Assembly (NCBI GenBank): GCA_943371515.1
Contig: CALRVC020000006.1
Span: 50,435 to 114,434 of the forward strand
Direction: 5' to 3'
Origin: Synechococcus sp. UW140
Lineage (GTDB): Bacteria; Cyanobacteriota; Cyanobacteriia; PCC-6307; Cyanobiaceae
DNA: 64,000 bases
Part shown: positions 23,138-36,212 of the stretch, one piece after another
Numbering within the stretch: position 1 is the first letter of the stretch
Layout of the letters: the number at the start of each line of letters is the position of its first letter
Notes under the pieces: model-generated
Database searches by the model: none
Seen by the model: only the letters and a program-made list of their open reading frames with translations
What the model was told of the DNA's origin: nothing
Translations under genes and position numbers: made by a program

Positions 23138-24211
23138 GTGCTGCCGACCTACAACGAACGGCAGAACGTCGCCCGAATCCTGGAGGAACTGCTGCCACTG
23201 AAGCAACGCTTCGACCTCGAAGTTCTCTTCGTGGACGACGACTCGGCCGACGGCACGGCGGATCTGGTCAAGCAACTGGCCCATGGCCAGGCGGGTGTGC
23301 GCCTGATCCGCCGGGTGGGGCGCGCCGGCCTGGCCAGCGCCATCAAGGAAGGCATCCTCGATGCAACCGGCGATGTGATCGTGGTCATGGACTGCGACGG
23401 CCAGCACGAGCCGGCTGCGGTGGAAGCAGCTGTTGAGGCTCTCCTGAGCAGCGGCAGCGATCTGGTGGTGGGCAGCCGCTTCCACGCCGAGGCGGCCATT
23501 CATGGCCTGAGTGAGAAGCGCACCCGCAACTCCACCTGGGCCAACACCATTGCCCGCTTCAGCCTTCCGGGCTACCGCCGGCTCACGGATTACATGAGCG
23601 GCTTCTTTGCCCTGCGCCCCGAGGCCGCGCTGCGCTATGTGCGGCGGGTGGATGTGAATGGATTCAAGTTTCTCTACGAGCTGCTCTCAATCAGCCGCGG
23701 TTCGCTGCGGGTGAGTGAAATCCCCCTGCACTTCCAGGCCCGGGTGGCTGGTGATTCCAAGCTGGATCTGGCGATCGTCTGGGATCTGGGGGTGTCAATT
23801 CTGCACACCCTGCTGCTGCGCTCGATTCCCCGCCGAGCCATCAGCTTCGCCCTGGTGGGCCTGAGCGGAGTGGCGGTTCAGATGCTGGTGGTGCAGGCGC
23901 TGATGGGCGCCGCGGGGCTGGTCTTCAAGCAAGCACTGCCGATTGCGGTGGTGGTGGCTGCCAGCTCCAATTACCTGATCAACAACGCACTGACCTTCCG
24001 CTTCCAACGCCAACAGGGAACAGCGCTGCTGAAGGGCCTGCTCAAGTTCCTGCTGGTGGCCTCCCTGCCGGTGCTGGCCAATGTGGGCGTGGCCTCCACG
24101 TTTTACAACCTGGTGTCCCGCAACACCTTCTTGGCGCAACTGGCCGGCATTCTGGTGGTGTTCGTTTGGAACTACGCGGCGTCGTCCAGGCTTGTCTGGA
24201 ACACACCTTAG
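23138..24211 (+). CDS. Polyprenol-phosphate glycosyltransferase (GT2, DPM1/GtrB-like) fused to C-terminal GtrA domain; true start probably upstream
   Basis: LSIVLPTYNE, VDDDSADGT, MDCDGQH, DYMSGFF; C-terminal four-TM segment FALVGLSG...SSNYLINN..TF...WNY. Confidence 0.88.
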   Translation: MLPTYNERQNVARILEELLPLKQRFDLEVLFVDDDSADGTADLVKQLAHGQAGVRLIRRVGRAGLASAIKEGILDATGDVIVVMDCDGQHEPAAVEAAVEALLSSGSDLVVGSRFHAEAAIHGLSEKRTRNSTWANTIARFSLPGYRRLTDYMSGFFALRPEAALRYVRRVDVNGFKFLYELLSISRGSLRVSEIPLHFQARVAGDSKLDLAIVWDLGVSILHTLLLRSIPRRAISFALVGLSGVAVQMLVVQALMGAAGLVFKQALPIAVVVAASSNYLINNALTFRFQRQQGTALLKGLLKFLLVASLPVLANVGVASTFYNLVSRNTFLAQLAGILVVFVWNYAASSRLVWNTP

Positions 24212-25812
24212 GGGTCCTGAGTCCATGTGACAGGTCCATCTGGGCGATGATGCTGGAGAAGTACCACGACGCTTTTCCCAGAGAGAAAAACGGAAGTATC
24301 AGCCGGCCAAGGACTAACTTTCTCGGCTTGATTCAGAGCGACCTGCTTTTCCTTCTCGCTAGGCCTGCGGAGCAGATTCTCTCCGAGAAGAAAGTTGAGG
24401 ATCTCAATCTGGCGATAGCTGGCGAAGGCTTCGGTGGTGAGCATATGGGGGGCGTCCTTTACGGACGGCCAGCGCACGAAGTCCGCGATTCGGAAGGGAG
24501 GATAGCGACCGATGACCACAAGCGCTGTCCGCTCCTTAATAGGTGTGCCCAGCAAGGGCTCAACCCGCACCAGAACACGATTGATCATGTTGAGTTCATA
24601 GGTCGTCTTGAGCTGGGCGGCATTGGATTGCTGGGTGCCGAGCACCAGGAAGAACCAGAGCAGCAGCCAGGCCAGCGGCAGGGCCGCCCAGCGAAGCGAT
24701 CTTGGCTGCAGCGCAAGCCCCAGAAAGAAAAGGAGCGCGTAGCCGTGGGCCGCATAGAACCTGCCGCTGTCAGTGGGCGTGGCGCTGTTCACGATGTTGG
24801 CGGCGTTCACCGCCACCGGAACCAGAAGAACGGCGGCGAGCAGGGCCAGCCGAACCGATCGATCCAGGCCCGGCCAGGCCTGCAGAGCGAGCAAACCCAG
24901 GGCAACAAGGATCAGGGGAATCAGGCCGAGCACTCCCCGGGGCACACCCCCCACTCCCGAAGCCAGATAGTCAAAGAACGTCCGGTAGGACTCACCCACC
25001 TCCTCGATGGCCTGACCCGCGCCGTTGAGACGGGTACTGGGCCAGATCGGAGCTGTAATCACGACCTTCGAGCTGATCCAGAACAGCACGGCCGACAGCA
25101 ATAAAGGAGCCGGAGCGAGCAGTGCCTCACGCAGGACTGCCGGCGGTTCGGCGTCGGGAGCGGACCGACGCCGAACCGCATGAACCGTCAACACGAGAAT
25201 CAGATTGAACAGCAGGAAGACACTGACCGAGGCGATCTTCGGCGCATAGGTGGCCAGGGCCATGAAGTAGAACGTGGAGGTGCCCAGAATTCTCGTGGGG
25301 TCACGCCTGCTCAGCACCCACACCAACGAGCCCAGAATCACGAACGTATCGGCGATCACGAACGAGATGTGGTCAGCGGCAAACGAGTAATAGTCAAGAA
25401 AAGCGGGGTACAGGCAAAGAATTCCAGCCAGCAGGAAGACATGCATCTTTCTCTGCAGCCCCACCAACCGGGCAAAAAGAATGCCATTCAATGCCTGAAG
25501 AAGGGCCGCACCGATCATCTGCAGGGACTGGACTCCGCTGCCGCCCTGAGCCAGGATGATCAGGTCGGCCAGCCATCGGCCTTCGCCCGATGTCTTGAAG
25601 CTTGGATAGTCGTAGAGCCTGCTGTTGGGAAAGGTATGATCCGTCAGCGTCATCTCCGTGAAGAAGTAGCTGTAGGCCACGATCTGCAGCAGGAGCAGCG
25701 CTATGAAGACGAGGCGATACCGAGCGGCCCAGGCGATGAAGGTCCGAAGCAAGGCCCGCAGAGAGATCCTGCCATAGGAAAGTCCTGCGTTCCAGCTCTC
25801 CGTTGCGGACAT
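24208..25812 (-). CDS. GT-C membrane glycosyltransferase, GtrII/GtrC-like
   Basis: About 11 hydrophobic segments, early EGRW and LYP motifs, soluble C-terminal domain; adjacent to GtrB-GtrA fusion. Confidence 0.6.
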   Translation of the reverse strand: MSATESWNAGLSYGRISLRALLRTFIAWAARYRLVFIALLLLQIVAYSYFFTEMTLTDHTFPNSRLYDYPSFKTSGEGRWLADLIILAQGGSGVQSLQMIGAALLQALNGILFARLVGLQRKMHVFLLAGILCLYPAFLDYYSFAADHISFVIADTFVILGSLVWVLSRRDPTRILGTSTFYFMALATYAPKIASVSVFLLFNLILVLTVHAVRRRSAPDAEPPAVLREALLAPAPLLLSAVLFWISSKVVITAPIWPSTRLNGAGQAIEEVGESYRTFFDYLASGVGGVPRGVLGLIPLILVALGLLALQAWPGLDRSVRLALLAAVLLVPVAVNAANIVNSATPTDSGRFYAAHGYALLFFLGLALQPRSLRWAALPLAWLLLWFFLVLGTQQSNAAQLKTTYELNMINRVLVRVEPLLGTPIKERTALVVIGRYPPFRIADFVRWPSVKDAPHMLTTEAFASYRQIEILNFLLGENLLRRPSEKEKQVALNQAEKVSPWPADTSVFLSGKSVVVLLQHHRPDGPVTWTQDP

Positions 25813-26084
25813 ATCCCGCCAAGCGATGCGGAATGATTATGCCTCAGAGCTCCCCAGTGATCCCTACGGCCACCTCAGCAGCCTGGATGCCCACCGACCG
25901 CATCCACAGGCAGAAATTGCCCTCCCACCGGAATCAGCGGAAAACAATCGAAGCCACCCTTGTGCAGAGCTGCTGCATGGCGCGAGGTCCACAGTCCCCT
26001 CAGACAGGATCAGATGGCGTTCAGGGCAATTAGAGAAGAATCCCTGCGATACGCCTCGGTGCACGTGTGTAAAATGGTTCGCGA

Positions 26085-27776
26085 ATGCCGTGCCTGGCTC
26101 GATCAGCCATGCATGCCCCTAGTGGACCTATCCCGCCTGTGTCCATAAACGAAGGAAGAGCGAGCAGAACCCGGCCAGTCGGTCTGCTGGTCTGGTGCGC
26201 AGTCCTGGCCAGCAGTCTGTTCACCCTCTGGTTCTGGCTGAGTACGGCTTCACAACCTCTGGTCGATCAGCATGGCTTTCGGCAGACGCAGACCGCACTT
26301 TCGGCTTTTCATCTGTTCCAGAACGGGAACGGCCTCCTGAACTACGAGACCCCTGTCCTGGGGAAACCGTGGTCCATCCCCTTCGAGTTTCCCACCTTCC
26401 AGCTGGCAGCTTACTCGCTAAAGAGAATCTCAACCTTTGATCTTACCAGCGCGGGACGGCTGACCAGCATCGGCTTCGCCATGGGCTGCCTAGCCATCGG
26501 CATTGCCATTCTCAGACAGTTCTCGATATCGAAAGCTGGCATCATTGTCTTTACACTGCTTTATCTTTCTTCGCCGATTTACCTGTACTGGAGCAGAACT
26601 TTCATGATCGAAAGTACTGCCTTGCTGCTCAGCCTGGCAGCTCTCTACCTGTATTGGGCATCAAGGCGACTTGATGACAGGCACTGGGGGAAAATCCTTA
26701 CGGTCCTCACCTCTCTTCTGATTTGCCTGACGCTGGCGCTGCTGACCAAGGCCACCACCGCCTTGCCGGTGTTCCTGCTGATCCTGATCGACCAAACCTA
26801 TGCGATGGGGGCCGCCACCCTGCGCCGAACCCACAGCATCGACAGACGCAGAATCCTCGCCCGTGGCATCATAGTTCTCGCTATTCTCCTACTGTCGTTT
26901 CTTACCTTGAAGGGTTGGACTGCTCACGCCGACGCACTCAAGGAGCTCAATCCATTTGCACGATTCCTCACTTCCAAACAGCTTGCTAGATGGAACTTTG
27001 GTGATTTTCGTCAACGCCTCTCAGGCGATCTGTGGGTCGGCGCTGTGTGGCAAAGGATGCTGACTCCAAGTGGATCCATTCCAATTGCCATTATTTTGAT
27101 TCTCGGCACCATCAAGACTCGCCCAAATAGCCAGAGCCGCTATCTCATTCTCTGCTTTATGGGCTTGGCGCTGGTACCGCTGTTCATCTTCACCAATCTC
27201 CACATCATACATAACTACTATCAGTACGCCAATGAGATTTATCTACTTCTCGCAATCGCCGTCTCCATCGATGCTCTGACTAGCTCAGGACGCCGATCGT
27301 GGAATCTCCTTGCTGGCATCTGCCTGACTATCATTATCATCAGCTTCTATGGAAACTTCTTCCAATCTTACTATCGTGATGCTCAGATCACGGACAATGC
27401 AGAAAGCATGGCAGGCGCCTACACAAGAAGTATCACGGACCCAACGGAAGCCATCCTTGTGTTCGGCGACGATTGGAGTTCGGCCATGGCCTTCCATTCA
27501 CAACGCAGAGCGTTCACCTTCCGTCCGGCCCTTACGACCTCAGGCGACGGGATCAATCAGAATTATATTCTGGCCAACCCAGCTGATTTCATCGGTCCGC
27601 TCAGACTCGGAGCCATCGCAAGCAGGGGAGAAAAGATTCCTGCCGACAAAGTGTCCATAGCCTGCGGTCGAGCCACCAGTGGGGAACCCCATGTCGAGGG
27701 CGATTGGCTGATCTACTCCTGCCGATCCAGCGCAGCGCGTGTACAGCCTGATGCGTCATCAGATATCAGGTCTTGA
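26085..27776 (+). CDS. GT-C membrane glycosyltransferase, ArnT/PMT-like
   Basis: HGFRQTQT..., YETPVLGKPWSIPFEFP, YWSRTFMIES and HNYYQ motifs; multiple TM segments; visibly low GC. Confidence 0.72.
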   Translation: MPCLARSAMHAPSGPIPPVSINEGRASRTRPVGLLVWCAVLASSLFTLWFWLSTASQPLVDQHGFRQTQTALSAFHLFQNGNGLLNYETPVLGKPWSIPFEFPTFQLAAYSLKRISTFDLTSAGRLTSIGFAMGCLAIGIAILRQFSISKAGIIVFTLLYLSSPIYLYWSRTFMIESTALLLSLAALYLYWASRRLDDRHWGKILTVLTSLLICLTLALLTKATTALPVFLLILIDQTYAMGAATLRRTHSIDRRRILARGIIVLAILLLSFLTLKGWTAHADALKELNPFARFLTSKQLARWNFGDFRQRLSGDLWVGAVWQRMLTPSGSIPIAIILILGTIKTRPNSQSRYLILCFMGLALVPLFIFTNLHIIHNYYQYANEIYLLLAIAVSIDALTSSGRRSWNLLAGICLTIIIISFYGNFFQSYYRDAQITDNAESMAGAYTRSITDPTEAILVFGDDWSSAMAFHSQRRAFTFRPALTTSGDGINQNYILANPADFIGPLRLGAIASRGEKIPADKVSIACGRATSGEPHVEGDWLIYSCRSSAARVQPDASSDIRS

Positions 27777-27815
27777 GTCCTCAAGCCCCCTCCTGTCTCT
27801 CCCATCGCTGAGTCC

Positions 27816-28739
27816 TTGGCCTTTGTTCCTTCCCTGATCCGTTCTTGCCGACCCCGGCAATGGAGCAAGAACCTGCTGGTGTATGCCTCGGCCGTGTTCG
27901 CTTTCTCGCTGGCTCCGTCGGTCTGGTGGAATTCCAGCCTTGCCCTGATCTGCTTTTGCCTGATCTCCAGCAGCGTCTACCTGGTCAACGACATCATCGA
28001 CGTCGAGGCCGATCGCCGACACCCCAGAAAATGCCACCGGCCGATCGCCTCTGGAGCCGTTCCGATCCCGGCGGCCCTGACGGCCTCCGCCTTTCTGGCG
28101 TTGGCGAGCCTTTCCCTGGCAGCGACCCTGACGCCCAGTCTCGCCATGGTGGTTCTGGCCTACGCCCTGATCCAGCTCGCCTACTGCCTGGGGCTCAAAC
28201 GCCAGCCCCTGATCGACCTGTTCTGCATCGCCTCCGGCTTTTTGCTGCGGGCCGTCGCCGGGCTGGTGGCCACGGGGCTCGGCAGCTCCCCCTGGTTCCT
28301 GCTCTGCGTGGGCCTGCTCGCCCTCTTCCTGGCGGTGGAGAAACGCAAGGCCGAACTGCGGGTCTCCATGGATCGAGGGGTGATCACCCGGCAGGTGCTG
28401 GAGCGCTACTCGCTTCCCCTGCTCCAACGGCTGGAATCCTTGGTAGCGAGCAGCGCCTTCATGGCCTACAGCCTCTGGAGCGCAGGTCCCACGCTCCAGG
28501 GAGCTCCCACCAGCTGGATGCTGCTGACGGTTCCATTCGTGCTGGTGGGAATCTTTCGCTACCAGCTTCTCAGTGACCCCGAGGAGGCCGAACGACGGGC
28601 CAGTCGGCATCCCGACCAGAGCACAGAACGTCCGGAGGAGATCCTTCTGGGCGACCGCGGCATCCAGCTCACCCTGTTGGGCTGGATGACCACCGTGGTC
28701 ATGGTAGGGATGGGCCACAGAATGGCTTGGTTCCCATGA
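27816..28739 (+). CDS. Polyprenyl-phosphate phosphoribosyltransferase (UbiA family, DPPR synthase-like)
   Basis: RPRQWSKNL, YLVNDIIDVEADRRHPRK.HRPIASG, GFLLRAVAG, KRKAEL, GIFRY and PEEILLGD motifs. Confidence 0.88.
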   Translation: MAFVPSLIRSCRPRQWSKNLLVYASAVFAFSLAPSVWWNSSLALICFCLISSSVYLVNDIIDVEADRRHPRKCHRPIASGAVPIPAALTASAFLALASLSLAATLTPSLAMVVLAYALIQLAYCLGLKRQPLIDLFCIASGFLLRAVAGLVATGLGSSPWFLLCVGLLALFLAVEKRKAELRVSMDRGVITRQVLERYSLPLLQRLESLVASSAFMAYSLWSAGPTLQGAPTSWMLLTVPFVLVGIFRYQLLSDPEEAERRASRHPDQSTERPEEILLGDRGIQLTLLGWMTTVVMVGMGHRMAWFP

Positions 28740-29464
28740 TTCGCAGCGCCTTCGTGCTCGGCAGCACCAGTGCTGTCGCAGCGGCGCTCTGCAGGGCGCT
28801 GGCCAGGCAGGGCTGTCGCCGCTTCCACCTGGTCGCCCGCGACGCCCCCGCCAACGAACGGCTGGCCGCCGAACTGCGTGTGCGCCATGGGGCCGACGTC
28901 AGCCTGGAAACATGCGATCTTTTCGCCACAGCCTCCCTGGACAAGCCGCTGAGGCCCAGCATCGATCAGAGCTTCGATCTCTATCTCATCACTGCAGGCT
29001 CGCTCGGGGATGCCGAGGTGGCACGGTCTGATGCAGCTGAAGCGCTGGCGATCACAGCCGCCAACTACAGCGGGCTGCTTCCCTGGCTGACCGCCATCGT
29101 CACATCCGAACGGATCGCCAGGCCCGGCAGACTGTGGGTGTTCACTTCAGTGGCCGCCGACCGGGGCAGGCCCTCCAACTACCACTACGGCGCAGCGAAA
29201 GCGGCCCTCACCACCTACTGCGAAGGGCTGCTGCTGCGCTGTCAGGGCCAGCCGTTCTGCGTGCGCATTCTCAAGGCGGGTTTTATGGCCACACCGATGA
29301 CGCTCGGCAAGGCCCCACCCCTGCTCTGCGCCAGCCCCGAGTCTGTGGCCCTGGACCTGCTGCGACGGCCCGATCGCCGTGGCATCGAGTACATCCCCTG
29401 GTGGTGGGCACCGCTGATGTGGATGGTTCGCCTGCTGCCACGCCAGCTGGCCAGCAAGCTATGA
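28736..29464 (+). CDS. DprE2-like short-chain dehydrogenase/reductase
   Basis: LGSTSAVA, SVAADRGRPSNYHYGAAKA (YxxxK), KAGFMATPMT; between DPPR synthase and DprE1 homologues. Confidence 0.8.
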   Translation: MIRSAFVLGSTSAVAAALCRALARQGCRRFHLVARDAPANERLAAELRVRHGADVSLETCDLFATASLDKPLRPSIDQSFDLYLITAGSLGDAEVARSDAAEALAITAANYSGLLPWLTAIVTSERIARPGRLWVFTSVAADRGRPSNYHYGAAKAALTTYCEGLLLRCQGQPFCVRILKAGFMATPMTLGKAPPLLCASPESVALDLLRRPDRRGIEYIPWWWAPLMWMVRLLPRQLASKL

Positions 29465-30834
29465 CCCTCTCCTTTCCCTCGGAAACCCGCACCCTCACGG
29501 GCTGGGGCCGCACGATGCCCGTAAAGGCGACGGTCTGGAAACCAGCGTCGCTGGAGCAGTTGCAGCAGCTGGTGCACCAGGCCAGGCCGGGCAGCCTGAT
29601 TCCCCGCGGCCTCGGCCGGTCCTACGGGGATGCTGCCCAGTGCGCCGATGGGAATGTGATCGATCTGGGCGGATTCGATCGGATCGAACTCGATCCGATC
29701 CAAGGCACGGTCACGGCCGGAGCTGGTGTCAGCCTCGCCTCGGTGCTGCGGGTGATCGTTCCGGCCGGATTTTTCCTGCCCGTCACCCCCGGCACCCGCA
29801 ACGTGACGGTGGGCGGTGCCATCGCCGCCGACGTGCACGGCAAGAACCACCACGTCGAGGGCAGCTTCGCCAGCCACGTGCGCCACCTTCAGCTGGTCGA
29901 CGGCAACGGTGACCAGCACACTCTGCAGCCGGATGGCGAGGAGGAAGCCGCGGCCGCCTTCTGGGCCACCGCCGGCGGCATGGGTCTCACTGGCGTCATC
30001 ACCGAGGCCACCTTCTCTCTCCTGCCGATCCGCACGTCCCTGATCAGCGTCGATACCGACCGCCACAGCACGCTCGACTCCCTGATGGCGGCGATGGTGG
30101 AGGGGGACGCGCGCTACCGCTACAGCGTCGCCTGGGTGGACAGTCTCCACCCCCGGGGCCGGGGCGTGCTCACCCGCGGGGACCACAGCAGCCGTGAACA
30201 ATTGCAGGAGCTGGGCTCAGCTCAGACGGCGGAACCCCTGGCCTACGACCCCAGGGCGCTGGCTTCGGCCCCGGCCTTTCTGCCCGGGGGACTTCTGAAC
30301 ACCTGGACGGTACGGGCCTTCAACGAAACCTGGTTCCGCAAGGCCCCCGCGCATCGGATCGGCGAGCTTCAGGCCATCGGCCCCTTCTTCCATCCCCTCG
30401 ATGGTGTCGCCGACTGGAACCGCATCTATGGACCGGCCGGCTTCCTGCAGTACCAGTTCACCGTGCCGGACGAGGCTGCCGAGCTGGTGCCCCGCGCCCT
30501 GGAGGCCCTGCGCGGCATCGGCGCGCCCAGCTTCCTGACGGTGCTCAAACGTTTCGGGTCCGCCAATGCGGGACCCCTCTCATTCCCACAACCCGGGTGG
30601 ACCCTCGCCGCCGATGTGCCAGCGGCCGTGCCCGGACTGTTCGAGCTGCTCGATCGGCTCGACGAGCAGGTGGCGGCCAGCGGCGGACGTCTTTACCTGG
30701 CCAAGGATTCGCGCCAGTCCGCTGCCATCTTCCAGCGCAGCTATCCGCGACTCGATGACTGGCGGCGGCAGCGGAACCGACTCGATCCCCGCGCTGTCTT
30801 CAGCTCCGACCTGGCCCTGCGAGTCGGACTCTGA
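29461..30834 (+). CDS. DprE1-like FAD-dependent oxidase
   Basis: RGLGRSYGDAAQ, PVTPGTRNVTVGGAIAADVHGKNHH, WNRIYG..GFLQYQ, VLKRFG and GRLYLAKD motifs. Confidence 0.92.
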   Translation: MTLSFPSETRTLTGWGRTMPVKATVWKPASLEQLQQLVHQARPGSLIPRGLGRSYGDAAQCADGNVIDLGGFDRIELDPIQGTVTAGAGVSLASVLRVIVPAGFFLPVTPGTRNVTVGGAIAADVHGKNHHVEGSFASHVRHLQLVDGNGDQHTLQPDGEEEAAAAFWATAGGMGLTGVITEATFSLLPIRTSLISVDTDRHSTLDSLMAAMVEGDARYRYSVAWVDSLHPRGRGVLTRGDHSSREQLQELGSAQTAEPLAYDPRALASAPAFLPGGLLNTWTVRAFNETWFRKAPAHRIGELQAIGPFFHPLDGVADWNRIYGPAGFLQYQFTVPDEAAELVPRALEALRGIGAPSFLTVLKRFGSANAGPLSFPQPGWTLAADVPAAVPGLFELLDRLDEQVAASGGRLYLAKDSRQSAAIFQRSYPRLDDWRRQRNRLDPRAVFSSDLALRVGL

Positions 30835-31147
30835 TGCGCAGGGACAGCCGCACCGACTGTTCAGCCACCTCAATCACGTTCCGACACTTTCCTTTTGTCA
30901 TCGACGATCTCAATGCGGATGGTATTGTCTTCAGGAGCCACAGGGCGGCGCCAGAAGCGATGACCAGACTGCTCGTATTCCCGGTGATCAAGAATAGAAA
31001 TGAGCGGCTTGACATGACGAAGAGAAGAGCTGTTCGGCAGAACAAATCAATCCGCCACCAGCAACAGCTCTCGGCCGGGAGAGTCTCAGTGAACGCCGTC
31101 GATAGTCCCTTCAAGTTGATTCCCGACAGGATGGAGATGATCCGGCG

Positions 31148-32086
31148 ATGAGGGTGTTCCTCCCCGGTGGGGCCGGCCTGGTGGGCCTCAACCTGATCGC
31201 AGTGATTCAGCAACACCATCCCGACTGGCAGTTGCTCGTGGTGGACAAGAAGACCGAAGCGCTGGAAATCGGCAGGCGTCTGTTTCCCTCCGTCAGCTTC
31301 GTCGACGAGGATCTGACCCGCACGAGCGGACAGACCTGGCCGGCCCTGCTCAGCGGCTGTCACGCCTGCGTGATGCTTCAGGCCGAAATCGGCAACACCG
31401 ATCCCCAGGCCTTCGAGCGCAACAACATCACCAGCACCGAGGTGGTGCTGGCTGAATTGCGTCGACAGGGAATCCCCAGGCTCGTCCACGTGAGCAGCTC
31501 AGTGGTGAACTCCGTGGCCACCGACCTCTACACAAGCACTAAGCGCCGACAGGAGGAACTCGTCAGGCGTGCCTGGCCTGAGGCCGTCGTGCTGCGCCCC
31601 ACCCTGATGTTCGGATGGTTCGACCGCAAGCACCTCGGCTGGCTAGCACGCTTCATGCAACGCCTGCCGGTGTTCCCCATCCCCGGCTCAGGTCGGTTCA
31701 TCCGCCAGCCCCTCTATGTCGGCGACTTCTGCAGCATCATCGTGCGCTGCCTGGAGAGACCCTCCTTCAGCGGCACTTACGACATCACCGGCACAGAGCG
31801 GGTGACCTACATCAGCCTGATGCGTCAACTGCGCACTGCCGTGTCCGCGCGGCCATTGATCCTCCATCTGCCCATTCCCCTGTTCGGTTGGCTTCTGCAG
31901 CTCTGGGCCCTGATCAGTCGCCAGCCGGCCTTCACCCGGGATCAGCTTCAGGCACTCACAGCAGGTGATGAGTTTGAGGTGATCGACTGGCCGGGGATCT
32001 TCTCGGTTTCGCCCACGCCGCTGGCAGAGGCTCTGCGGATCGCCTATCGAGATCCCCGCTATTGCAACGTGGTGATCCCCTTCTGA
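31148..32086 (+). CDS. NAD-dependent epimerase/dehydratase family protein
   Basis: GGAGLVG Rossmann motif, HVSSS, YTSTK, LRPTLMFG. Confidence 0.85.
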   Translation: MRVFLPGGAGLVGLNLIAVIQQHHPDWQLLVVDKKTEALEIGRRLFPSVSFVDEDLTRTSGQTWPALLSGCHACVMLQAEIGNTDPQAFERNNITSTEVVLAELRRQGIPRLVHVSSSVVNSVATDLYTSTKRRQEELVRRAWPEAVVLRPTLMFGWFDRKHLGWLARFMQRLPVFPIPGSGRFIRQPLYVGDFCSIIVRCLERPSFSGTYDITGTERVTYISLMRQLRTAVSARPLILHLPIPLFGWLLQLWALISRQPAFTRDQLQALTAGDEFEVIDWPGIFSVSPTPLAEALRIAYRDPRYCNVVIPF

Positions 32087-33390
32087 TGAGCAGCACCTCC
32101 AGCATCGCTGTCATCGGCGGCGGCCCGATGGGTCTGGCCGTGGCCTACGAGCTCTGCCTCCAGGGCTTCCGGCCCGTGTTGCTCGAAGCCGACGACCGGC
32201 TCGGCGGCATGGCGGCCAGCTTCGATTTCGCCGGTGTTGAGCTGGAGCGTTATTACCACTTCCACTGCCTCAGTGACCGGGCCTTCTTCCAGCTGCTACA
32301 GGAACTGAACCTTCAGGATTCCCTGCGCTGGGAGCAGACCCGGATGGGATTCTTCCTCGATGGGCGTCTCTATCCGTGGGGTTCGGCCGGGGCCGTACTC
32401 GGTTTCAGGCGGTTGCCGCTTTCAACGCGCCTGCGCTATCTACTCCATGCTGCGCGTTGTCTCACGATCCGCGACTGGCGCCACCTCGATGGCCTGTCGG
32501 CGACGTCATGGCTGAAACGCTGGCTAGGCGAACAGGGATATCATGTGCTGTGGGGAAAACTCTTCGCCTACAAGTTCTATCACCACACTGATTCGCTCTC
32601 GGCCGCCTGGATCTGGAGCCGGATCCGCCGTGTCGGCCAGTCACGCCGGGGGCTGAAGGAAACCCTAGGCTATCTGGACGGTGGATCGAAGCGTTGGATC
32701 GAGGCCCTTGCCAACGAGATCCGCCGGCAGGGTGGCACGATCCGCCTCAACAACCCCGTGGGACAGCTGGGTGGCAGTGCTGAGGCTGGAGGCGTCGAGC
32801 TCTCCACACCAGCGGGAATGGAGCGCTTCGATGCTGTCATCTCCACGGTGCCGCTGCCACTGGTGGCTCCGATGCTCACGACCGGCGGCGTTGATGCGGC
32901 ACTGGTGCAGCCATTCGAAGCGCAACTCTCTGTGGCCTGCGCCTGCGTGGTGATCCAGACCAGACAGCCGATCACCCAGAATTTTTGGACCAACGTCAAT
33001 GACGAGCGATTCCGGATCCCCGGCATTATCGAAATGTCGAACCTGCAGCCGCTCCAACCCCACATCACCTACGTACCCTTCTATATGCCGGCCGACCATC
33101 CCGACTACGGCCGTCCGAACGAAGCCTTCATCAACGATTCGATCGCTTGCCTGAAGGCGATCAACCCGTCTCTCCAGGACGAGGACTTCCTGGCCTGCCA
33201 CTGCAGCCGTTATCGCCATGCCCAGCCGGTGTGCGGCGTTCACTTCCTGCGCACCCTGCCGCCGCTGCAGCCCCTGCCGAACCTCTGGATTGCCGACACC
33301 ACCGTGTACTACCCGGAGGACCGGGGCATCTCAGAGAGTGTTCAGTTCGGTCGAGAACTGGCGCGTAAGATCGCCGACAGCCTGAGATGA
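32086..33390 (+). CDS. FAD-dependent oxidoreductase (HemY/amine-oxidase fold)
   Basis: IGGGPMG, EADDRLGGMA, ERYYH, LGYLDGG, YYPEDRG. Confidence 0.85.
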   Translation: MSSTSSIAVIGGGPMGLAVAYELCLQGFRPVLLEADDRLGGMAASFDFAGVELERYYHFHCLSDRAFFQLLQELNLQDSLRWEQTRMGFFLDGRLYPWGSAGAVLGFRRLPLSTRLRYLLHAARCLTIRDWRHLDGLSATSWLKRWLGEQGYHVLWGKLFAYKFYHHTDSLSAAWIWSRIRRVGQSRRGLKETLGYLDGGSKRWIEALANEIRRQGGTIRLNNPVGQLGGSAEAGGVELSTPAGMERFDAVISTVPLPLVAPMLTTGGVDAALVQPFEAQLSVACACVVIQTRQPITQNFWTNVNDERFRIPGIIEMSNLQPLQPHITYVPFYMPADHPDYGRPNEAFINDSIACLKAINPSLQDEDFLACHCSRYRHAQPVCGVHFLRTLPPLQPLPNLWIADTTVYYPEDRGISESVQFGRELARKIADSLR

Positions 33391-33800
33391 CCGCCACCGG
33401 GAATCAACGTCGGCAATTCACGGCATTCGTACTCACCGGGGGACTGGCCGCCATGGTGAACGTGGTGAGCCGGGTCGGATTCTCCACAGTCGTGCACTTC
33501 GATCTGGCGGTTCTGCTCGCCTACGGATGCGGCATGCTCACGGCCTATCTCCTGGCTAGGAAGTTCGTGTTCATGAGCAGCCGCGTCAGCGTACGTCGAT
33601 CCTTCGCTGCCTTCTGCCTCGTGAATGCCTTCGCAGTGCTGCAGACCTGGGCGGTGAGCCTTGGGATGCGCAACTGGGTACTGCCGCTGCTCGGCATCGT
33701 GCTGTTCCGCGATCTGATCGCCCACACCATCGGCGTCGCCGTGCCGGTGGTCAGCAGCTATTTCGGGCACAAGCATATTTCCTTCCGTGATCACACCTGA
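33387..33800 (+). CDS. GtrA family polyprenyl-P-sugar translocase
   Basis: FVLTGGLAA..N, AY..AR.FVF, F..VN, SYFGHK..SF; 137 aa with 4 TM segments. Confidence 0.88.
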   Translation: MTATGNQRRQFTAFVLTGGLAAMVNVVSRVGFSTVVHFDLAVLLAYGCGMLTAYLLARKFVFMSSRVSVRRSFAAFCLVNAFAVLQTWAVSLGMRNWVLPLLGIVLFRDLIAHTIGVAVPVVSSYFGHKHISFRDHT

Positions 33801-35361
33801 CGACAAACTTCCGGTGGTGGCCGCCTTCGATTTTGACGGCACCCTCATCCGTGGCGACTGCCTGCTGATGCTGCACCGCCAGCTCAAGGGAGTCGGAGGC
33901 ATGGCGCTCGACTGGTTGCGCCTGATCAGGCCATTCCTCGCCTGGTCCAGGGGCCGTCTGAGCACAGCCGGCTTCAAGGAGCGCTATCTGTGCGTAGTGC
34001 TCCTGGACATGACACGGGAGACCCTCTCCATCGCGTTGAGCCATGCGCTGCCGGCCGTGGAGTGGCGCGCCCTGCGGCCTGGAGCCCTCGCCCGCCTGCG
34101 CTGGCATCAGACCCAGGGCCATCGTGTGGTGATCATCTCTGCTTCGCCCCGTCCCCTGATCGCTCCACTCGCTGATCGACTGGGGGTGGACCTGCTGGCC
34201 ACCGAGATCAGCGATCCTCTGGAGCATGGGCCGTCCACTCCCCTGCGGCTCACCTCGGCCAACTGCAAAGGAGCCGAGAAGGTCCAACGACTCAAGGACT
34301 GGCTTGATCTGCCCCTGGAGGAGATCAGCCTGTATGCCTACGGCGACAGCCGCGGGGACCGCCAGCTGTTGGAGGTGAGCACGGCGCCCCACTGGCGCAG
34401 CTTCGGCCCGGAACCGCGGCCCTACCCAGGCAGGAGGGCGACAGCGGGACCACCGGGTGGCTGGATCCCGCTGGCGGCGCTCATTCTGCTGAGCCTGGCC
34501 TTGTTCGGGCTGGCAGGCCTGAGCCCGGCGGAGCGACTCGGCCTCCAGGAGAGCCTGGGCCGTGTGCTGGCCTGGCTGCCGGCCATCTACGTGATCCTGG
34601 GATTGGCCTACTTGGGGCGTTACTGGCGCTGGCGACTGCTATTGAGCTCCGCCGACATCGGCCGCTGGAGCTGGCGCGATGCCGGAGCCTGGTTCGTGGG
34701 CTTCGCCCTCACCGCCACCCCCGGCAAACTCGGTGAGCTGAGCAGGGTGCAGCAGCTGCACCGGGAACTTGGCTATTCGCGCGCAGCGCTGGTGCATGTT
34801 TTCGTGGCGGAAAGGCTCTGCGATGGCGTGGCCGTGCTGCTGTGGCTGGCACTGCTGGCGCCCTCCGTCCTTCGGGCTGGCCTTGGGCGACTCCAACCGC
34901 CCGCGATCGGCCTGATGCTGCTGATGGGAGCCGCAGTCCTCGTTGCCATTGTCTGGATCTGGAGACGGTGGGGAGCGCCCTGGCGCCACCGTCTTCCCAG
35001 CGGTGCCCTGGGCAGGGCCTGCCTGCCTGCCAGCATCGTGAGTATGGGGATCTGGGCCTGTGAATCGCTGATTCTCTGGCTTCTGGTTCGGGTGGTCAGC
35101 CCCGCTCACCCGGTGCAGATCCAGGCGGCGATCAGCACTTACCTGCTTTCAGGATCACTCGGGATGCTCTCCACCCTCCCGGGCGGGGTGGGCGTCAACG
35201 AGGGAGCCACGATCGTGCTGCTGGCTCGCCTGGGTGTTCCAACCTCCGCAGGACTCGCCATCGCCATCCTGCGGCGCCTCTGCACGGTGTGGAGTGTGAC
35301 CGGACTGGCCGTGATGCTTGGCTGGTGGCGAGAGAGCCGAGAAGGCCTGAAACGGGCCTGA
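33787..35361 (+). CDS. HAD-IB phosphatase fused to lysylphosphatidylglycerol-synthase-TM (UPF0104 flippase-like) domain
   Basis: DFDGT, ISAS, NCKGAEK and YGDSRGD HAD motifs; C-terminal RYWRW, TPGKLGE, ERLCD and PGGVGVNEG motifs. Confidence 0.82.
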   Translation: MITPDDKLPVVAAFDFDGTLIRGDCLLMLHRQLKGVGGMALDWLRLIRPFLAWSRGRLSTAGFKERYLCVVLLDMTRETLSIALSHALPAVEWRALRPGALARLRWHQTQGHRVVIISASPRPLIAPLADRLGVDLLATEISDPLEHGPSTPLRLTSANCKGAEKVQRLKDWLDLPLEEISLYAYGDSRGDRQLLEVSTAPHWRSFGPEPRPYPGRRATAGPPGGWIPLAALILLSLALFGLAGLSPAERLGLQESLGRVLAWLPAIYVILGLAYLGRYWRWRLLLSSADIGRWSWRDAGAWFVGFALTATPGKLGELSRVQQLHRELGYSRAALVHVFVAERLCDGVAVLLWLALLAPSVLRAGLGRLQPPAIGLMLLMGAAVLVAIVWIWRRWGAPWRHRLPSGALGRACLPASIVSMGIWACESLILWLLVRVVSPAHPVQIQAAISTYLLSGSLGMLSTLPGGVGVNEGATIVLLARLGVPTSAGLAIAILRRLCTVWSVTGLAVMLGWWRESREGLKRA

Positions 35362-35440
35362 CAGAAATACTTTGGCCTCCAGAGCAGCAGCCTGCCACGC
35401 AGAAGCCAAGCCGCCAAGTCGTGGTGAAAAAGTCAGCGCG

Positions 35441-35542
35441 TCGGTGCCGCCGGAGCAATTGCTGCTGCAGCAACTCCACAACAATCTGCTGTTCCGTTAG
35501 TTTGTGGATCTGCACCCAGATGATCCGATCTGGCACCCGACC
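35441..35542 (+). pseudogene. IS5-family transposase fragment
   Basis: In-frame SVPPEQLLL-QQLHNNLLFR*FVDLHPDDPIWHPT resembles the IS5 segment PEQLL...EQL.YNLLFRWFVG..DD..W; TAG at 35498 replaces Trp. Confidence 0.75.
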
Positions 35543-35943
35543 AAGGATGGCCTACGGCCGGCCCCGGGTTCAGAAAACGAATCAGTACACACGTACGCCC
35601 TCGCGCCCGAAACACCTACGGCCAAGCCAGAGTACCCTTGCCACTCTGGTCATGAGGACATCGGGCCATGGCCGATGACATCTTTGGAGGCCTGACCCCG
35701 AAAGGAAACGTGGCCTGGGATTTGAATTGCGCTCAAAGATCCTGAGGCTGCTCCACCTCTTTATTGTGTTCTTTTTTTCCTGTCTTTGCAGGCTTGTCCG
35801 GCTCCATATCTCACCAGGGAAGGCCTGGACAATTACCGACGAAAGATGGAAGGATTGGCCAGTCACCGCATAGACGTGGCCATAGCCTCCGTAAGCCCTC
35901 CTCAGATGCCCGTTGCGGCGCGATGTGGCATCGGTTGTTTTTC

Positions 35944-36015
35944 ATGAGTCCCTACTGCCGTGAGCGGGGCTTGTCTCCCGAGCAGGTGGATCGCTGGCGA
36001 GCAGCGTCCCAGTAA
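35944..36015 (+). mobile_element. IS3-family OrfA fragment
   Basis: YCRERGLSPEQVDRWR resembles the YCRERGL.PEQ..RW helix of IS3 OrfA. Confidence 0.65.
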
Positions 36016-36212
36016 GTGCTTCTCGGGAGGCGAACCGTCAGATATCAGCTGTGGCCATGGGTGGGCCGGTCTGTGACCCTGTTTGGAGCACAACCACCAA
36101 ACCGAACACAGACCATGACCCTGTGCCCCGTGTCAATCAGGTTGAGGTCCGCGCCCTGAAATCAGGCTCCAGCTCAGCTCCCTTCCACGACTGGCATTCA
36201 GAGGCAGTCGGT

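Follow-up and report, generated by a model that had tools for sequence, protein, structure and literature searches.

A picocyanobacterial genomic island encoding a putative periplasmic pentofuranose glycosylation system

The stretch of Synechococcus sp. UW140 DNA analyzed here (64,000 nucleotides, hereafter the window) raises the question of what a picocyanobacterium would do with genes resembling those of the mycobacterial decaprenyl-phosphate-arabinose pathway, and on which sugar and which acceptor they might act. A sequence-only reading had proposed a mycobacterial-type route to a lipid-linked arabinofuranose (Araf) donor, used by adjacent GT-C enzymes in a picocyanobacterial host, with camouflage against phage or grazers as a possible role. 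The host assignment is upheld, the nearest named relatives being Cyanobium and Synechococcus (Prochlorococcaceae), and the features on which the remainder depends are as follows.

23138..24211, + strand: GT2 (GtrB/DPMS-like polyprenyl-P-hexose synthase) fused to a GtrA membrane domain (Pfam Glycos_transf_2 and GtrA_DPMS_TM)
24208..25812, - strand: GtrII-like GT-C membrane glycosyltransferase (Pfam Glucos_trans_II, 39.8 bits, cut-off 30)
24212..36211, no strand: inserted island, between the stops of the core GT2-GtrA and core SBP_bac_3 genes
26109..27776, + strand: ArnT/PMT-like GT-C, candidate pentofuranosyltransferase (Pfam PMT, 22.7 bits, exactly at cut-off)
27816..28739, + strand: polyprenyl-phosphate phosphoribosyltransferase, UbiA family, Rv3806c/DPPRS type (NF008978, PDB 8J8J)
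28727..29464, + strand: DprE2-like SDR, 2-keto-pentofuranose reductase (top PDB match M. tuberculosis DprE2)
29461..30834, + strand: DprE1, FAD-dependent polyprenyl-P-ribose 2'-oxidase (NF053785, PDB DprE1)
30834..31151, + strand: orf105, 3' remnant of the 696-aa polytopic membrane protein c10 (tblastn/blastn)
31148..32086, + strand: extended SDR (NAD epimerase/dehydratase, NDUFA9-like; Pfam Epimerase, 55 bits)
32062..33390, + strand: FAD flavoprotein of the PRK07233 family, protoporphyrinogen-oxidase/phytoene-desaturase (PPO/PDS) fold (NF005560, AF2 model)
33387..33800, + strand: GtrA-family small membrane protein, candidate flippase/hub for lipid-linked pentose (Pfam GtrA_DPMS_TM, 48 bits)
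33787..35361, + strand: fusion of a HAD-IB phosphatase (residues 1-210) to LPG_synthase_TM (MprF flippase-like; Pfam)

Positions 27816-35361 form one translationally coupled operon on the + strand. From UbiA through the HAD fusion, successive genes overlap by 13, 4 (ATGA, in which the dprE1 start at 29461 meets the DprE2 stop), 1, 4, 25, 4 and 14 nt, and the fact that every junction overlaps is consistent with a single operon. The same-strand run of UbiA, DprE2-like SDR, DprE1, GtrA and HAD phosphatase genes first described is present in full, but that gene list omitted three ORFs (30834-31151, 31148-32086 and 32062-33390), among them the two conserved genes that lie between dprE1 and gtrA and encode the extended SDR and the PPO/PDS-like flavoprotein.

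Two of the enzymes that would build the donor pass curated family cut-offs. UbiA scores 263 bits against the NCBIfam equivalog for decaprenyl-phosphate phosphoribosyltransferase (NF008978, cut-off 207), being the only match above cut-off in the genome, and aligns with PDB 8J8J (E 1e-50) with identity in the 45% range to the solved Rv3806c structure, including its Asp-rich motif (NDxxDxxxD). DprE1 likewise exceeds its equivalog cut-off (NF053785, 540 bits against 500), so that the HMM comparison with the Rv3806c and DprE1 families bears out the initial assignments, and among 14 control genomes the UbiA and DprE1 cut-offs are exceeded by Corynebacterium glutamicum only. Against the M. tuberculosis DprE1 structure (E 1e-112) K418, Q334 and V365 are retained and C387, the residue that benzothiazinones target, is replaced by Ala. 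The DprE2-like SDR lies under its model cut-off (NF053786, about 98 bits against 250); it is the best DprE2-model match of the genome (97.6 bits vs 52 for the next) and aligns over its full length with M. tuberculosis DprE2 (E 6e-14), with YGAAK present. The HAD fusion (Pfam HAD 109 bits, LPG_synthase_TM 114 bits, about seven transmembrane segments) is a candidate 5'-phosphatase and possibly a translocator too. It is found together with UbiA and DprE1/E2 in either type of picocyanobacterial cassette, of which type B is without GtrA, and its HAD domain resembles the phosphatase domain of the Pseudomonas UbiA fusion at motif I only.

Taken together, homology and gene order, from which the steps, donor, lipid carrier, acceptor and linkage proposed here are all drawn, make it likely that the island encodes a periplasmic "three-component" pentofuranose glycosylation system. 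The gene content for converting PRPP to polyprenyl-P-ribose-5-P and polyprenyl-P-ribose, followed by 2-epimerization, is catalytically intact. The HAD domain of the fusion would strip the 5'-phosphate, after which C2' would be oxidized by DprE1 (FAD) and reduced by the DprE2-like SDR to the arabino configuration, yielding polyprenyl-P-D-Araf; the carrier is probably undecaprenyl rather than the decaprenyl of M. tuberculosis. GtrA and/or the MprF-like membrane domain may then carry the lipid-linked sugar across to the periplasmic side, where the ArnT/PMT-like GT-C would transfer it to a surface glycan, most likely O-antigen or another polysaccharide. The extended SDR and the flavoprotein, which are strictly co-conserved, would act somewhere on the same lipid-linked intermediate; the canonical scheme has no step for them, and they could alter the product.

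Three-component extracytoplasmic pentofuranose systems were described by Kelly, Duong, Nothof, Lowary and Whitfield (PNAS 2024; PMC11127046), with ORF15/ORF14/ORF12(/ORF13) of Citrobacter youngae O1/O2 as prototype and Araf versions using DprE1/E2 in Stenotrophomonas and Rathayibacter. Like them, the island pairs a polyprenyl-P phosphoribosyl synthase of the UbiA type with a HAD phosphatase and has a GT-C, a small membrane protein as flippase candidate, auxiliary epimerases that set pentose identity and a location in variable surface-glycan loci. It differs in that HAD has an MprF-type flippase-like domain as its fusion partner in place of UbiA, the flippase candidate is GtrA instead of MATE, the GT-C is ArnT/PMT-like, the SDR and PPO-like flavoprotein pair is extra and the host is cyanobacterial. 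A second experimentally defined system, pilin arabinosylation in Pseudomonas (para)aeruginosa Pa5196/PA7 (PsPA7_6245-6251 plus TfpW/TfpX; Pa5196, bioRxiv 10.1101/2020.04.19.049825), is likewise an accessory island of a Gram-negative host, in which UbiA, GtrA, DprE1 and DprE2 lead to polyprenyl-P-D-Araf and a GT-C acts in the periplasm. The match in mechanism to these two systems supports the three-component reading.

The mycobacterial label holds in part. As in the M. tuberculosis pathway (Rv3806c, Rv3807c, DprE1 Rv3790, DprE2 Rv3791, Rv3789 and Emb/Aft GT-C enzymes), the Rv3806c and DprE1 counterparts are joined by a DprE2-like SDR, a GtrA-family protein and a transferase whose modeled GT-C fold is similar to AftA and AftD, and the island DprE1 nests among Actinomycetota sequences, far from the proteobacterial clade. 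In contrast, the phosphatase is a HAD enzyme and not of the Rv3807c type, the GT-C is ArnT/PMT-like and not Emb/Aft by sequence, and the system is accessory instead of essential. As a whole, the cassette has its closest relatives in a proteobacterial operon that combines six shared genes (HAD-UbiA, DprE1, DprE2, extended SDR, PRK07233 flavoprotein and GtrA) with GT-C-like genes on Pseudomonas fluorescens-group chromosomes, in Burkholderia stagnalis, Rhodobacteraceae SC52 and Rhizobium tumorigenes, and on an Agrobacterium salinitolerans conjugative plasmid. The gene set and the SDR-flavoprotein-GtrA order are the same, but the island runs UbiA-DprE2-DprE1 instead of UbiA-DprE1-DprE2 and its HAD domain is detached from UbiA. 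The D-arabinose of Azorhizobium caulinodans, another Gram-negative, is also supplied by DprE1/DprE2/UbiA-type genes, noeC/noeH/noeO/noeP arabinosylating Nod factors; there the acceptor is a lipochitooligosaccharide signal and not a surface glycan.

Plain Araf as the sugar of the lipid-linked donor is not assured, because conservation between phyla is higher for the SDR/flavoprotein pair than for DprE1/E2. Identities to Pseudomonas reach 47% for the SDR, 51% for the flavoprotein and 53% for GtrA, against 42% for DprE1, 38% for DprE2 and 34% for UbiA, and each of the six proteobacterial cassettes examined in context (Pseudomonas, Burkholderia, Rhodobacteraceae, Rhizobium tumorigenes, Agrobacterium) contains the pair. 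The catalytic motifs of the SDR (GGAGLVG and YTSTK) are intact, with NDUFA9 as its best PDB matches, and the flavoprotein exceeds its family cut-off (NF005560, 449 bits against 252), its AF2 model (pLDDT 85) matching PPO and PDS in Foldseek (TM 0.75-0.79). A tentative alternative, of lower probability than D-Araf itself, is that the extra SDR, alone like Citrobacter ORF13 or with the flavoprotein, epimerizes or oxidizes another position such as C3, giving a different pentofuranose, for example D-Lyxf via Araf; or Xylf could be produced alongside to serve as a second donor. In C. youngae O2 one extended SDR suffices to turn undP-Ribf into undP-Xylf (PMC11127046), and two GT-C-like membrane proteins are encoded in several of the islands. 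Set against this, the type B cassettes of sister picocyanobacteria do without the pair, Lyxf is not known from any solved glycan (PMC11127046) and the PPO/PDS fold typically dehydrogenates hydrophobic substrates, not sugars. Moreover, other cyanobacteria and archaeal control genomes have PRK07233 flavoproteins without DprE1, encoded beside GtrB-like GT2 genes, so the substrate of these proteins may be the lipid carrier, or polyprenyl-P-sugars in general.

Both adjacent GT-C enzymes that had been noted, the PMT/ArnT-like protein at 26109-27776 and the GtrII-like protein at 24208-25812 (-), proved real. The first, directly upstream of UbiA and with the lowest GC of the island genes (0.54), has no PDB sequence match, but its AF2 model (pLDDT 91.6) confirms a predicted GT-C fold, with Foldseek matches to PglB, ArnT (TM 0.58), AftD and AftA (TM 0.56). 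The cassettes of Pseudomonas (34% identity), CB0101 and MIT S9503 each include a homolog, and the family is co-located with the cassette in the window and in genomes G024, G053 and G254 as well. The second, with about ten hydrophobic segments, probably uses a hexose donor from the core GT2-GtrA enzyme.

Gene context favors a polysaccharide or LPS acceptor over pili: the cassettes of sister loci L015, L016 and L023 are embedded among genes named by eye as rfb-type (dTDP-sugar), GT2, GT4-like and WbaP-like. A protein acceptor, whether type IV pilin (the case in P. aeruginosa group IV strains) or something else, seems unlikely. In its favor, the donor pathway has homologs in PsPA7_6245-6251, the GT-C_A fold is common to the protein O-/N-glycosyltransferases PglB, STT3 and PMT, and pilin arabinosylation is reported to block phages in Pseudomonas (bioRxiv 10.1101/150227). 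However, the Pa5196/PA7 transferase TfpW, which forms alpha-1,5 Araf oligomers on the pilin, is encoded beside pilA and apart from the donor genes, whereas here the GT-C belongs to the island, and the annotated island genes showed neither a pilin nor a TfpX-like gene. The homologous cassette of Pseudomonas is a neighbor of gyrA, and none of the genes called in its 20-kb locus has a pilin Pfam family.

The island (24212-36211) is cleanly inserted: its 12.0 kb stand where the same-genus genome G179 (L143) has a 65-bp spacer, and blastn identity with that genome ends at 24211 and restarts at 36212. The island has a GC content of 0.62 and the window one of 0.667, and no tRNA was found between 18 and 42 kb of the window. 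The flanking GT2-GtrA gene lies outside the insertion and is kept beside tkt in four island-less same-genus genomes (94-98% amino-acid identity), and a 152-bp remnant from the 3' end of HAD-LPG_TM adjoins thiC in G118, which points to turnover at the site. As cargo, the cassette is accessory and varies among strains; it occupies a glycosylation hot spot beside the core GtrB-GtrA gene, a setting that suggests cell-surface diversification.

Such turnover bears on whether the cassette is decaying or silent in this genome, with an incomplete transferase set and no product under normal conditions, which we regard as improbable. DprE1 is absent from the ten other same-genus genomes, and a 1.84-kb blastn gap relative to sister island L020 leaves a 105-aa remnant of c10; this remnant (orf105, with no Pfam match) is 51-54% identical by tblastn to the C-terminus of c10, which is intact in L020 and L021. 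Lacking the c10 that the sister islands keep, the window copy may be partly inactive. Nonetheless, none of the eight enzyme genes is truncated, their motifs are intact and their GC3 (0.76-0.83) is host-like, translational coupling is retained, and the cassette-linked GT-C family still has one intact member here. Finally, the proposal that UbiA is a quinone, chlorophyll or heme prenyltransferase among oxidoreductases of unrelated metabolism has nothing beyond superfamily membership in its favor and is effectively refuted by scores of 47 bits or less for the heme o synthase, ChlG, HPT, MenA and UbiA models, by the DPPRS assignment given above and by operon coupling to DprE1 and DprE2.

Although the pathway class was published in 2024 (Kelly et al., PNAS; PMC11127046), neither that article nor its supplement mentions cyanobacteria, and of units like the proteobacterial operon, which has no characterized member, it says just "more elaborate systems with multiple epimerases". 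The literature searched yielded no characterized cyanobacterial example, as had been anticipated, nor any that links DprE1 or Araf with cyanobacteria. The pathway type is common in other bacteria, the UbiA, DprE1, DprE2, SDR, flavoprotein, GtrA and GT-C set being found also in Pseudomonas, Burkholderia, Rhizobium and Agrobacterium, and the cyanobacterial member is a new case. It is not rare within its family: DprE1 is present in 26 of 301 family genomes, including those of the cultured strains Synechococcus CB0101, MIT S9503 and Cyanobium usitatum, so that about 9% of them carry the cassette.

The same-strand gene run claimed by the sequence-only reading is present at exactly window positions 27816-35361, as confirmed by six-frame ORFs and profile searches, and all the genes named in it were recovered. 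The six-frame ORF listing and GC3 screening from which the ORF series was derived revealed, however, three ORFs within the same coordinates that had been missed (a 105-aa ORF, an extended SDR and a PRK07233 FAD protein). The operon, located between tkt and thiC, reads as follows:

27816-28739, + strand, UbiA of the DPPRS type (NF008978)
28727-29464, + strand, DprE2-like SDR (NF053786 score, PDB match)
29461-30834, + strand, DprE1 (NF053785)
30834-31151, + strand, orf105, 105 aa, C-terminal remnant of the membrane protein c10
31148-32086, + strand, extended SDR (profile search, motifs)
32062-33390, + strand, FAD flavoprotein (NCBIfam PRK07233)
33387-33800, + strand, GtrA protein (GtrA_DPMS_TM)
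33787-35361, + strand, HAD-IB phosphatase fused to an LPG_synthase_TM (MprF flippase-like) domain (profile search)

All junctions in this cassette are overlapping, by 13, 4, 1, 4, 25, 4 and 14 nt in gene order, and the start of dprE1 is the ATG at 29461, within the ATGA overlap with the dprE2 stop. Judged from its sequence, the cassette is a genuine and probably functional member of a pathway class that was published in 2024 and is common across bacteria; what is new in the present case is the cyanobacterial host, the mosaic origin and the fusion of a HAD phosphatase to a flippase-like domain.

The UbiA protein scores 263 bits on the NF008978 decaprenyl-phosphate phosphoribosyltransferase equivalog (cut-off 207), matches the Rv3806c structure 8J8J with an E-value of 1e-50 and presents the NDxxDxxxD motif, whereas it obtains at most 55 bits on each of the heme, chlorophyll, tocopherol and quinone prenyltransferase models. 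These scores place it with the DPPRS equivalog and rule out a quinone, chlorophyll or heme prenyltransferase; its predicted activity is that of the PRPP-using polyprenyl-phosphate phosphoribosyl synthases of the systems described by Kelly et al. 2024 (PMC11127046). DprE1 reaches 540 bits on NF053785 (cut-off 500) and an E-value of 1e-112 against the M. tuberculosis DprE1 structure, the PDB alignment revealing conservation of the catalytic Lys418, of Gln334 and of Val365, together with replacement of Cys387 by Ala; it is a predicted orthologue of the DprE1 of the mycobacterial DPA pathway. The proposed relationship to Rv3806c and DprE1 is hence borne out, with both proteins matching above equivalog cut-offs. 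The case of DprE2 is less clear-cut: in a genome-wide profile search the island SDR is the best DprE2-like match of the host, and its top PDB match is Mtb DprE2, aligned over the full length and with YxxxK present, but its 98 bits on NF053786 fall under the family cut-off of 250, and DprE2 is the second-best family model for it. The same search identified a single DPPRS and a single DprE1 above cut-off in the host genome, and C. glutamicum (Corynebacterium glutamicum) was the only one among 14 control genomes to pass both cut-offs.

The interpretation of the cassette as a DPA-like pathway is thus supported in part, by UbiA and DprE1, but not by an Rv3807c-type phosphatase or Emb/Aft enzymes, which were not recognised in the island. 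In place of the former, which the literature on the mycobacterial pathway describes as unrelated to HAD-family phosphatases, the window presents a HAD-IB candidate (Pfam, 109 bits), and no other phosphatase family was detected among the island ORFs scanned against Pfam. The HAD always accompanies the cassette in picocyanobacteria, and its likeness to the UbiA-fused HAD of Pseudomonas is confined to motif I.

A 555-aa membrane protein, here termed the ArnT/PMT-like GT-C, is encoded on the same strand 40 nt upstream of ubiA. Its Pfam PMT score lies exactly at threshold and no sequence match to PDB chains was found at E<=1, but an AlphaFold (AF2) model built from 50 homologues (pLDDT 91.6) retrieved PglB, ArnT (TM 0.58), STT3, AftD and AftA (TM 0.56) in Foldseek searches, and the protein is predicted from this model to be a GT-C_A glycosyltransferase. 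The resemblance to mycobacterial AftA and AftD is restricted to the fold; Pfam points to PMT and GtrII for the island enzymes. The claim of adjacent GT-C enzymes is supported by this fold assignment and by a second, GtrII-like GT-C further upstream on the opposite strand, beyond which lies a GT2-GtrA fusion of the GtrB/DPMS type. As regards translocation, the GtrA_DPMS_TM protein of the operon is predicted to act as the small transporter (MATE or SMR/GtrA-like) of the systems of Kelly et al., and the MprF flippase-like domain of the HAD fusion is a second candidate. Two further membrane proteins are associated with related cassettes. One of them, c10 (696 aa, polytopic, without Pfam family), is intact in two sister islands (L020 10916-13006 and L021 6734-8824), where it sits between dprE1 and the SDR gene; in the window, a 1.84-kb deletion has removed all of it except the last ~100 codons, which constitute orf105 (30834-31151). 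The other, a 555-aa orphan termed c2, precedes ubiA in three other cassette loci (L015, L016 and L023). Both are candidates for unrecognised GT-C enzymes, and their comparison with the cassette GT-C by hhalign yielded no homology, except for a weak match to the C-terminal domain in the case of c2.

Taken together with gene linkage, these homologies outline a mechanism in which UbiA would couple PRPP to polyprenyl phosphate, the HAD domain would dephosphorylate the product, DprE1 and DprE2 would carry out 2-epimerisation, GtrA and/or the MprF-like domain (the sole candidate in the type B cassettes described below) would translocate the lipid-linked sugar and the ArnT/PMT-like GT-C would transfer the pentose. 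A periplasmic pentofuranose glycosylation system is the reading best supported by the sequence evidence. Such a three-component system has been shown experimentally in Citrobacter youngae, in which alpha-pentofuranose side chains are joined to the O antigen in the periplasm by means of a HAD-UbiA polyprenyl-phosphoribose synthase, a small transporter and a GT-C enzyme, and in which the SDR ORF13 alone converts undP-Ribf to undP-Xylf (PMC11127046). As in the three-component systems, the predicted GT-C of the window is encoded with the donor genes. The same work finds DprE1/E2 homologues with systems of Araf-containing glycans and, for Burkholderia, Rhizobium, Xanthomonas and Bacillus, reports "more elaborate systems" that combine several epimerases and GT-Cs. 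Neither that paper nor its supplement mentions cyanobacteria, and full-text searches of the literature for DprE1 and cyanobacteria, DPPRS and Synechococcus, and arabinofuranose with Synechococcus and LPS returned nothing relevant, in agreement with the earlier statement that no characterised cyanobacterial example is known.

The acceptor is more likely to be a polysaccharide or LPS than a pilin. In the Pa5196/PA7 system of P. aeruginosa (PsPA7_6245-6251 plus TfpW), alpha-1,5-D-Araf is added to pilin (bioRxiv 10.1101/2020.04.19.049825), and the group IV GT-C, TfpW, lies beside pilA. In contrast, no pilin-like gene was found near the island, among the annotated ORFs from fabF to ruvB (19.7-43.6 kb); moreover, the Pseudomonas homologue of the cassette is not pilin-linked and sister cassettes reside in polysaccharide loci. 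In particular, L015, L016 and L023 carry the cassette amid dTDP-sugar (rfb-type), GT2, GT4 and WbaP-type genes that, judged by eye, are polysaccharide-like.

The canonical pathway has no place for the extended SDR and the flavoprotein, a strictly co-conserved pair whose sequences are nevertheless better conserved between phyla than those of the canonical enzymes. The SDR retains intact GGAGLVG and YTSTK motifs and resembles NDUFA9 in its PDB matches, while the flavoprotein scores 449 bits on PRK07233 (cut-off 252) and its model (pLDDT 85) adopts a protoporphyrinogen-oxidase/phytoene-desaturase fold (TM 0.75-0.79). Families of the NDUFA9-like and PPO/PDS-fold types typically act at membrane surfaces on hydrophobic substrates. 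Relatives of the flavoprotein at 27-33% identity occur without DprE1 at six loci of other cyanobacteria (L046-L050 and L055), four of which harbor a GtrB-like GT2 gene within a few kb, and the control genomes of Haloferax volcanii and Methanosarcina acetivorans contain members of the family as well. These occurrences tentatively suggest that PRK07233 flavoproteins act more generally with polyprenyl-P-linked sugars or carriers; a literature search for such flavoproteins and polyprenol or dolichol saturation returned nothing relevant. The SDR and flavoprotein of the cassette may act on a second sugar carbon by epimerisation or oxidation, supply a second donor or alter the lipid carrier. In a more specific version, which we regard as rather unlikely, DprE1/E2 would invert C2 and the SDR and PPO-like flavoprotein would invert or oxidise C3 of the same polyprenyl-P-pentofuranose, yielding, for instance, polyprenyl-P-D-lyxofuranose or a pentofuranose carrying a keto group or another modification, with the HAD-MprF-like fusion as a coupled phosphatase-flippase for lipid-linked pentoses. 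Since Pseudomonas, Burkholderia and Rhizobium possess the same redox module, one solution would annotate thousands of genes. In P. aeruginosa, PsPA7_6250 and PsPA7_6251, possible counterparts of the SDR and flavoprotein, are reportedly dispensable for pilin arabinosylation, and the homologue search contained only P. fluorescens-group proteins among the matches listed. The D-lyxofuranose configuration has so far been found in no solved glycan (PMC11127046). The question posed by this redox pair is a general one and not peculiar to the window.

In a survey of relatives, 26 of the 301 genomes examined from the family, distributed over 15 of its 64 genera, contained DprE1, but no other member of the host's own genus did (10 genomes); across the phylum, 15 of 401 genomes were positive. 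Two types of cassette can be distinguished. Type A, that of the window, consists of UbiA, DprE2, DprE1, SDR, flavoprotein, GtrA and HAD-LPG_TM, while type B comprises UbiA, HAD-LPG_TM, sometimes a second LPG_TM, DprE2 and DprE1, without GtrA, SDR or flavoprotein; the SDR-flavoprotein-GtrA block of type A behaves like a mobile sub-module. The cassette or its flavoprotein is carried, among others, by Cyanobium usitatum Tous and Synechococcus MIT S9503, CB0101, CB0205 and CBW1107. Genomes of two other genera (G024 and G053) present the island at 86-88% nucleotide identity with c10 retained, in G024 at the same tkt site. In Cyanobium sp. EUL_250 (L057 9019-12632), the same tkt site holds UbiA, DprE1 and flavoprotein genes in that order, with no DprE2, SDR or GtrA detected between them, a reduced or rearranged variant of the cassette. 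A tblastn search with DprE1 against 50,697 phage records gave no match that would indicate carriage by cyanophages.

Picocyanobacteria are major primary producers, and surface differences between strains are believed to determine how susceptible they are to phages and grazers. The island provides a defined and experimentally tractable surface modification, a putative lipid-linked pentofuranose side-chain system found in about one in 11 species of the family, including culturable strains (Synechococcus CB0101, MIT S9503 and Cyanobium usitatum). No earlier example from cyanobacteria would then precede it in the pathway class behind mycobacterial arabinan and Pseudomonas pilin arabinan, and both the second oxidoreductase pair and the phosphatase-MprF-type flippase-like fusion could expose new steps in lipid-linked sugar handling.

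The limits of the island were set by comparison with a congeneric genome, G179, the tkt end of which is 97% identical in nucleotide sequence to the window. Identity ends at 24211 (stop of GT2-GtrA) and restarts at 36212 (stop of a convergent SBP_bac_3 gene), with just 65 bp between the same two points in G179, and the island was hence defined as the 12.0 kb from 24212 to 36211. Its GC content is 0.62 against 0.667 for the window, and that of the GT-C gene deviates further (0.54). The GT2-GtrA gene (a GtrB-GtrA fusion, 23138-24211) adjoins tkt and is core to the genus (compared loci L143, L144 and L145), and the slot downstream of it, empty in G179, is occupied in a second congener, G118, by a different insert of ~11 kb with a 56%-identical GtrII-like gene. 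G118 lacks the cassette and retains, next to thiC, a 152-bp relic of the 3' end of HAD-LPG_TM (L145 13204-13355, 88% identical to window positions 35230-35381), which suggests that it once had the cassette and later replaced it. On this sequence evidence, the tkt-side site appears to be a hot spot for cassette exchange and looks like a slot dedicated to surface-glycan variation without recognisable mobility genes: no tRNA lies within 18-42 kb, and no integrase or transposase was detected among the ORFs around the island scanned against Pfam. Promoter and terminator scans gave chance-level results. The right end of the island (35362-36211, 850 bp) presents a GC of 0.58, a GC3 of 0.56, no codon-position GC bias and no Pfam-recognisable ORF, and could represent either decayed sequence or regulatory DNA.

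Vertical inheritance or transfer from a single donor is too simple an account of this island, the component genes of which point to different relatives. In a maximum-likelihood tree of 101 DprE1 sequences, with outgroups picked by query-derived patterns and hence biased to close relatives, the picocyanobacterial copies of types A and B form a single clade (support 99), the sister of which is an uncultured lake bacterium; both are nested in a clade dominated by Actinomycetota (support 99), outside which fall the DprE1s of other cyanobacteria and of the proteobacterial units. UbiA, on the other hand, is closest to other cyanobacteria (52-53%), and proteobacterial units provide the nearest relatives of the SDR, flavoprotein and GtrA. 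Given these affinities and the deviant GC of the GT-C gene, the island is best described as a mosaic. Homologues of the GT-C at 32-34% identity were found in the Pseudomonas fluorescens group, in an operon located beside gyrA that encodes HAD-UbiA, DprE1, DprE2, GT-C, extended SDR, amine-oxidase-fold flavoprotein and GtrA, with identities to the window of 34% for GT-C and UbiA, 38% for DprE2, 42% for DprE1, 47% for SDR, 51% for flavoprotein and 53% for GtrA. All six families of this UbiA-DprE1-DprE2-SDR-flavoprotein-GtrA unit are represented, as assigned by homology, in the one coupled operon of the window, although dprE2 precedes dprE1 here and the HAD is separate from UbiA. Further copies of the six-gene unit, with large hypothetical membrane proteins downstream, were found in Burkholderia stagnalis, Rhizobium tumorigenes, a plasmid of Rhodobacteraceae and a conjugative plasmid of Agrobacterium, and the carriage of the unit on plasmids indicates that it is horizontally mobile among Proteobacteria. 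The plasmid-borne copies include those of Agrobacterium salinitolerans pDG3-1a (L147) and Rhizobium tumorigenes pRt932 (L146); one of these two plasmids, a 110-kb conjugative element (MOBP/MPF_T), bears an IS3 transposase gene ~4.7 kb downstream of gtrA.
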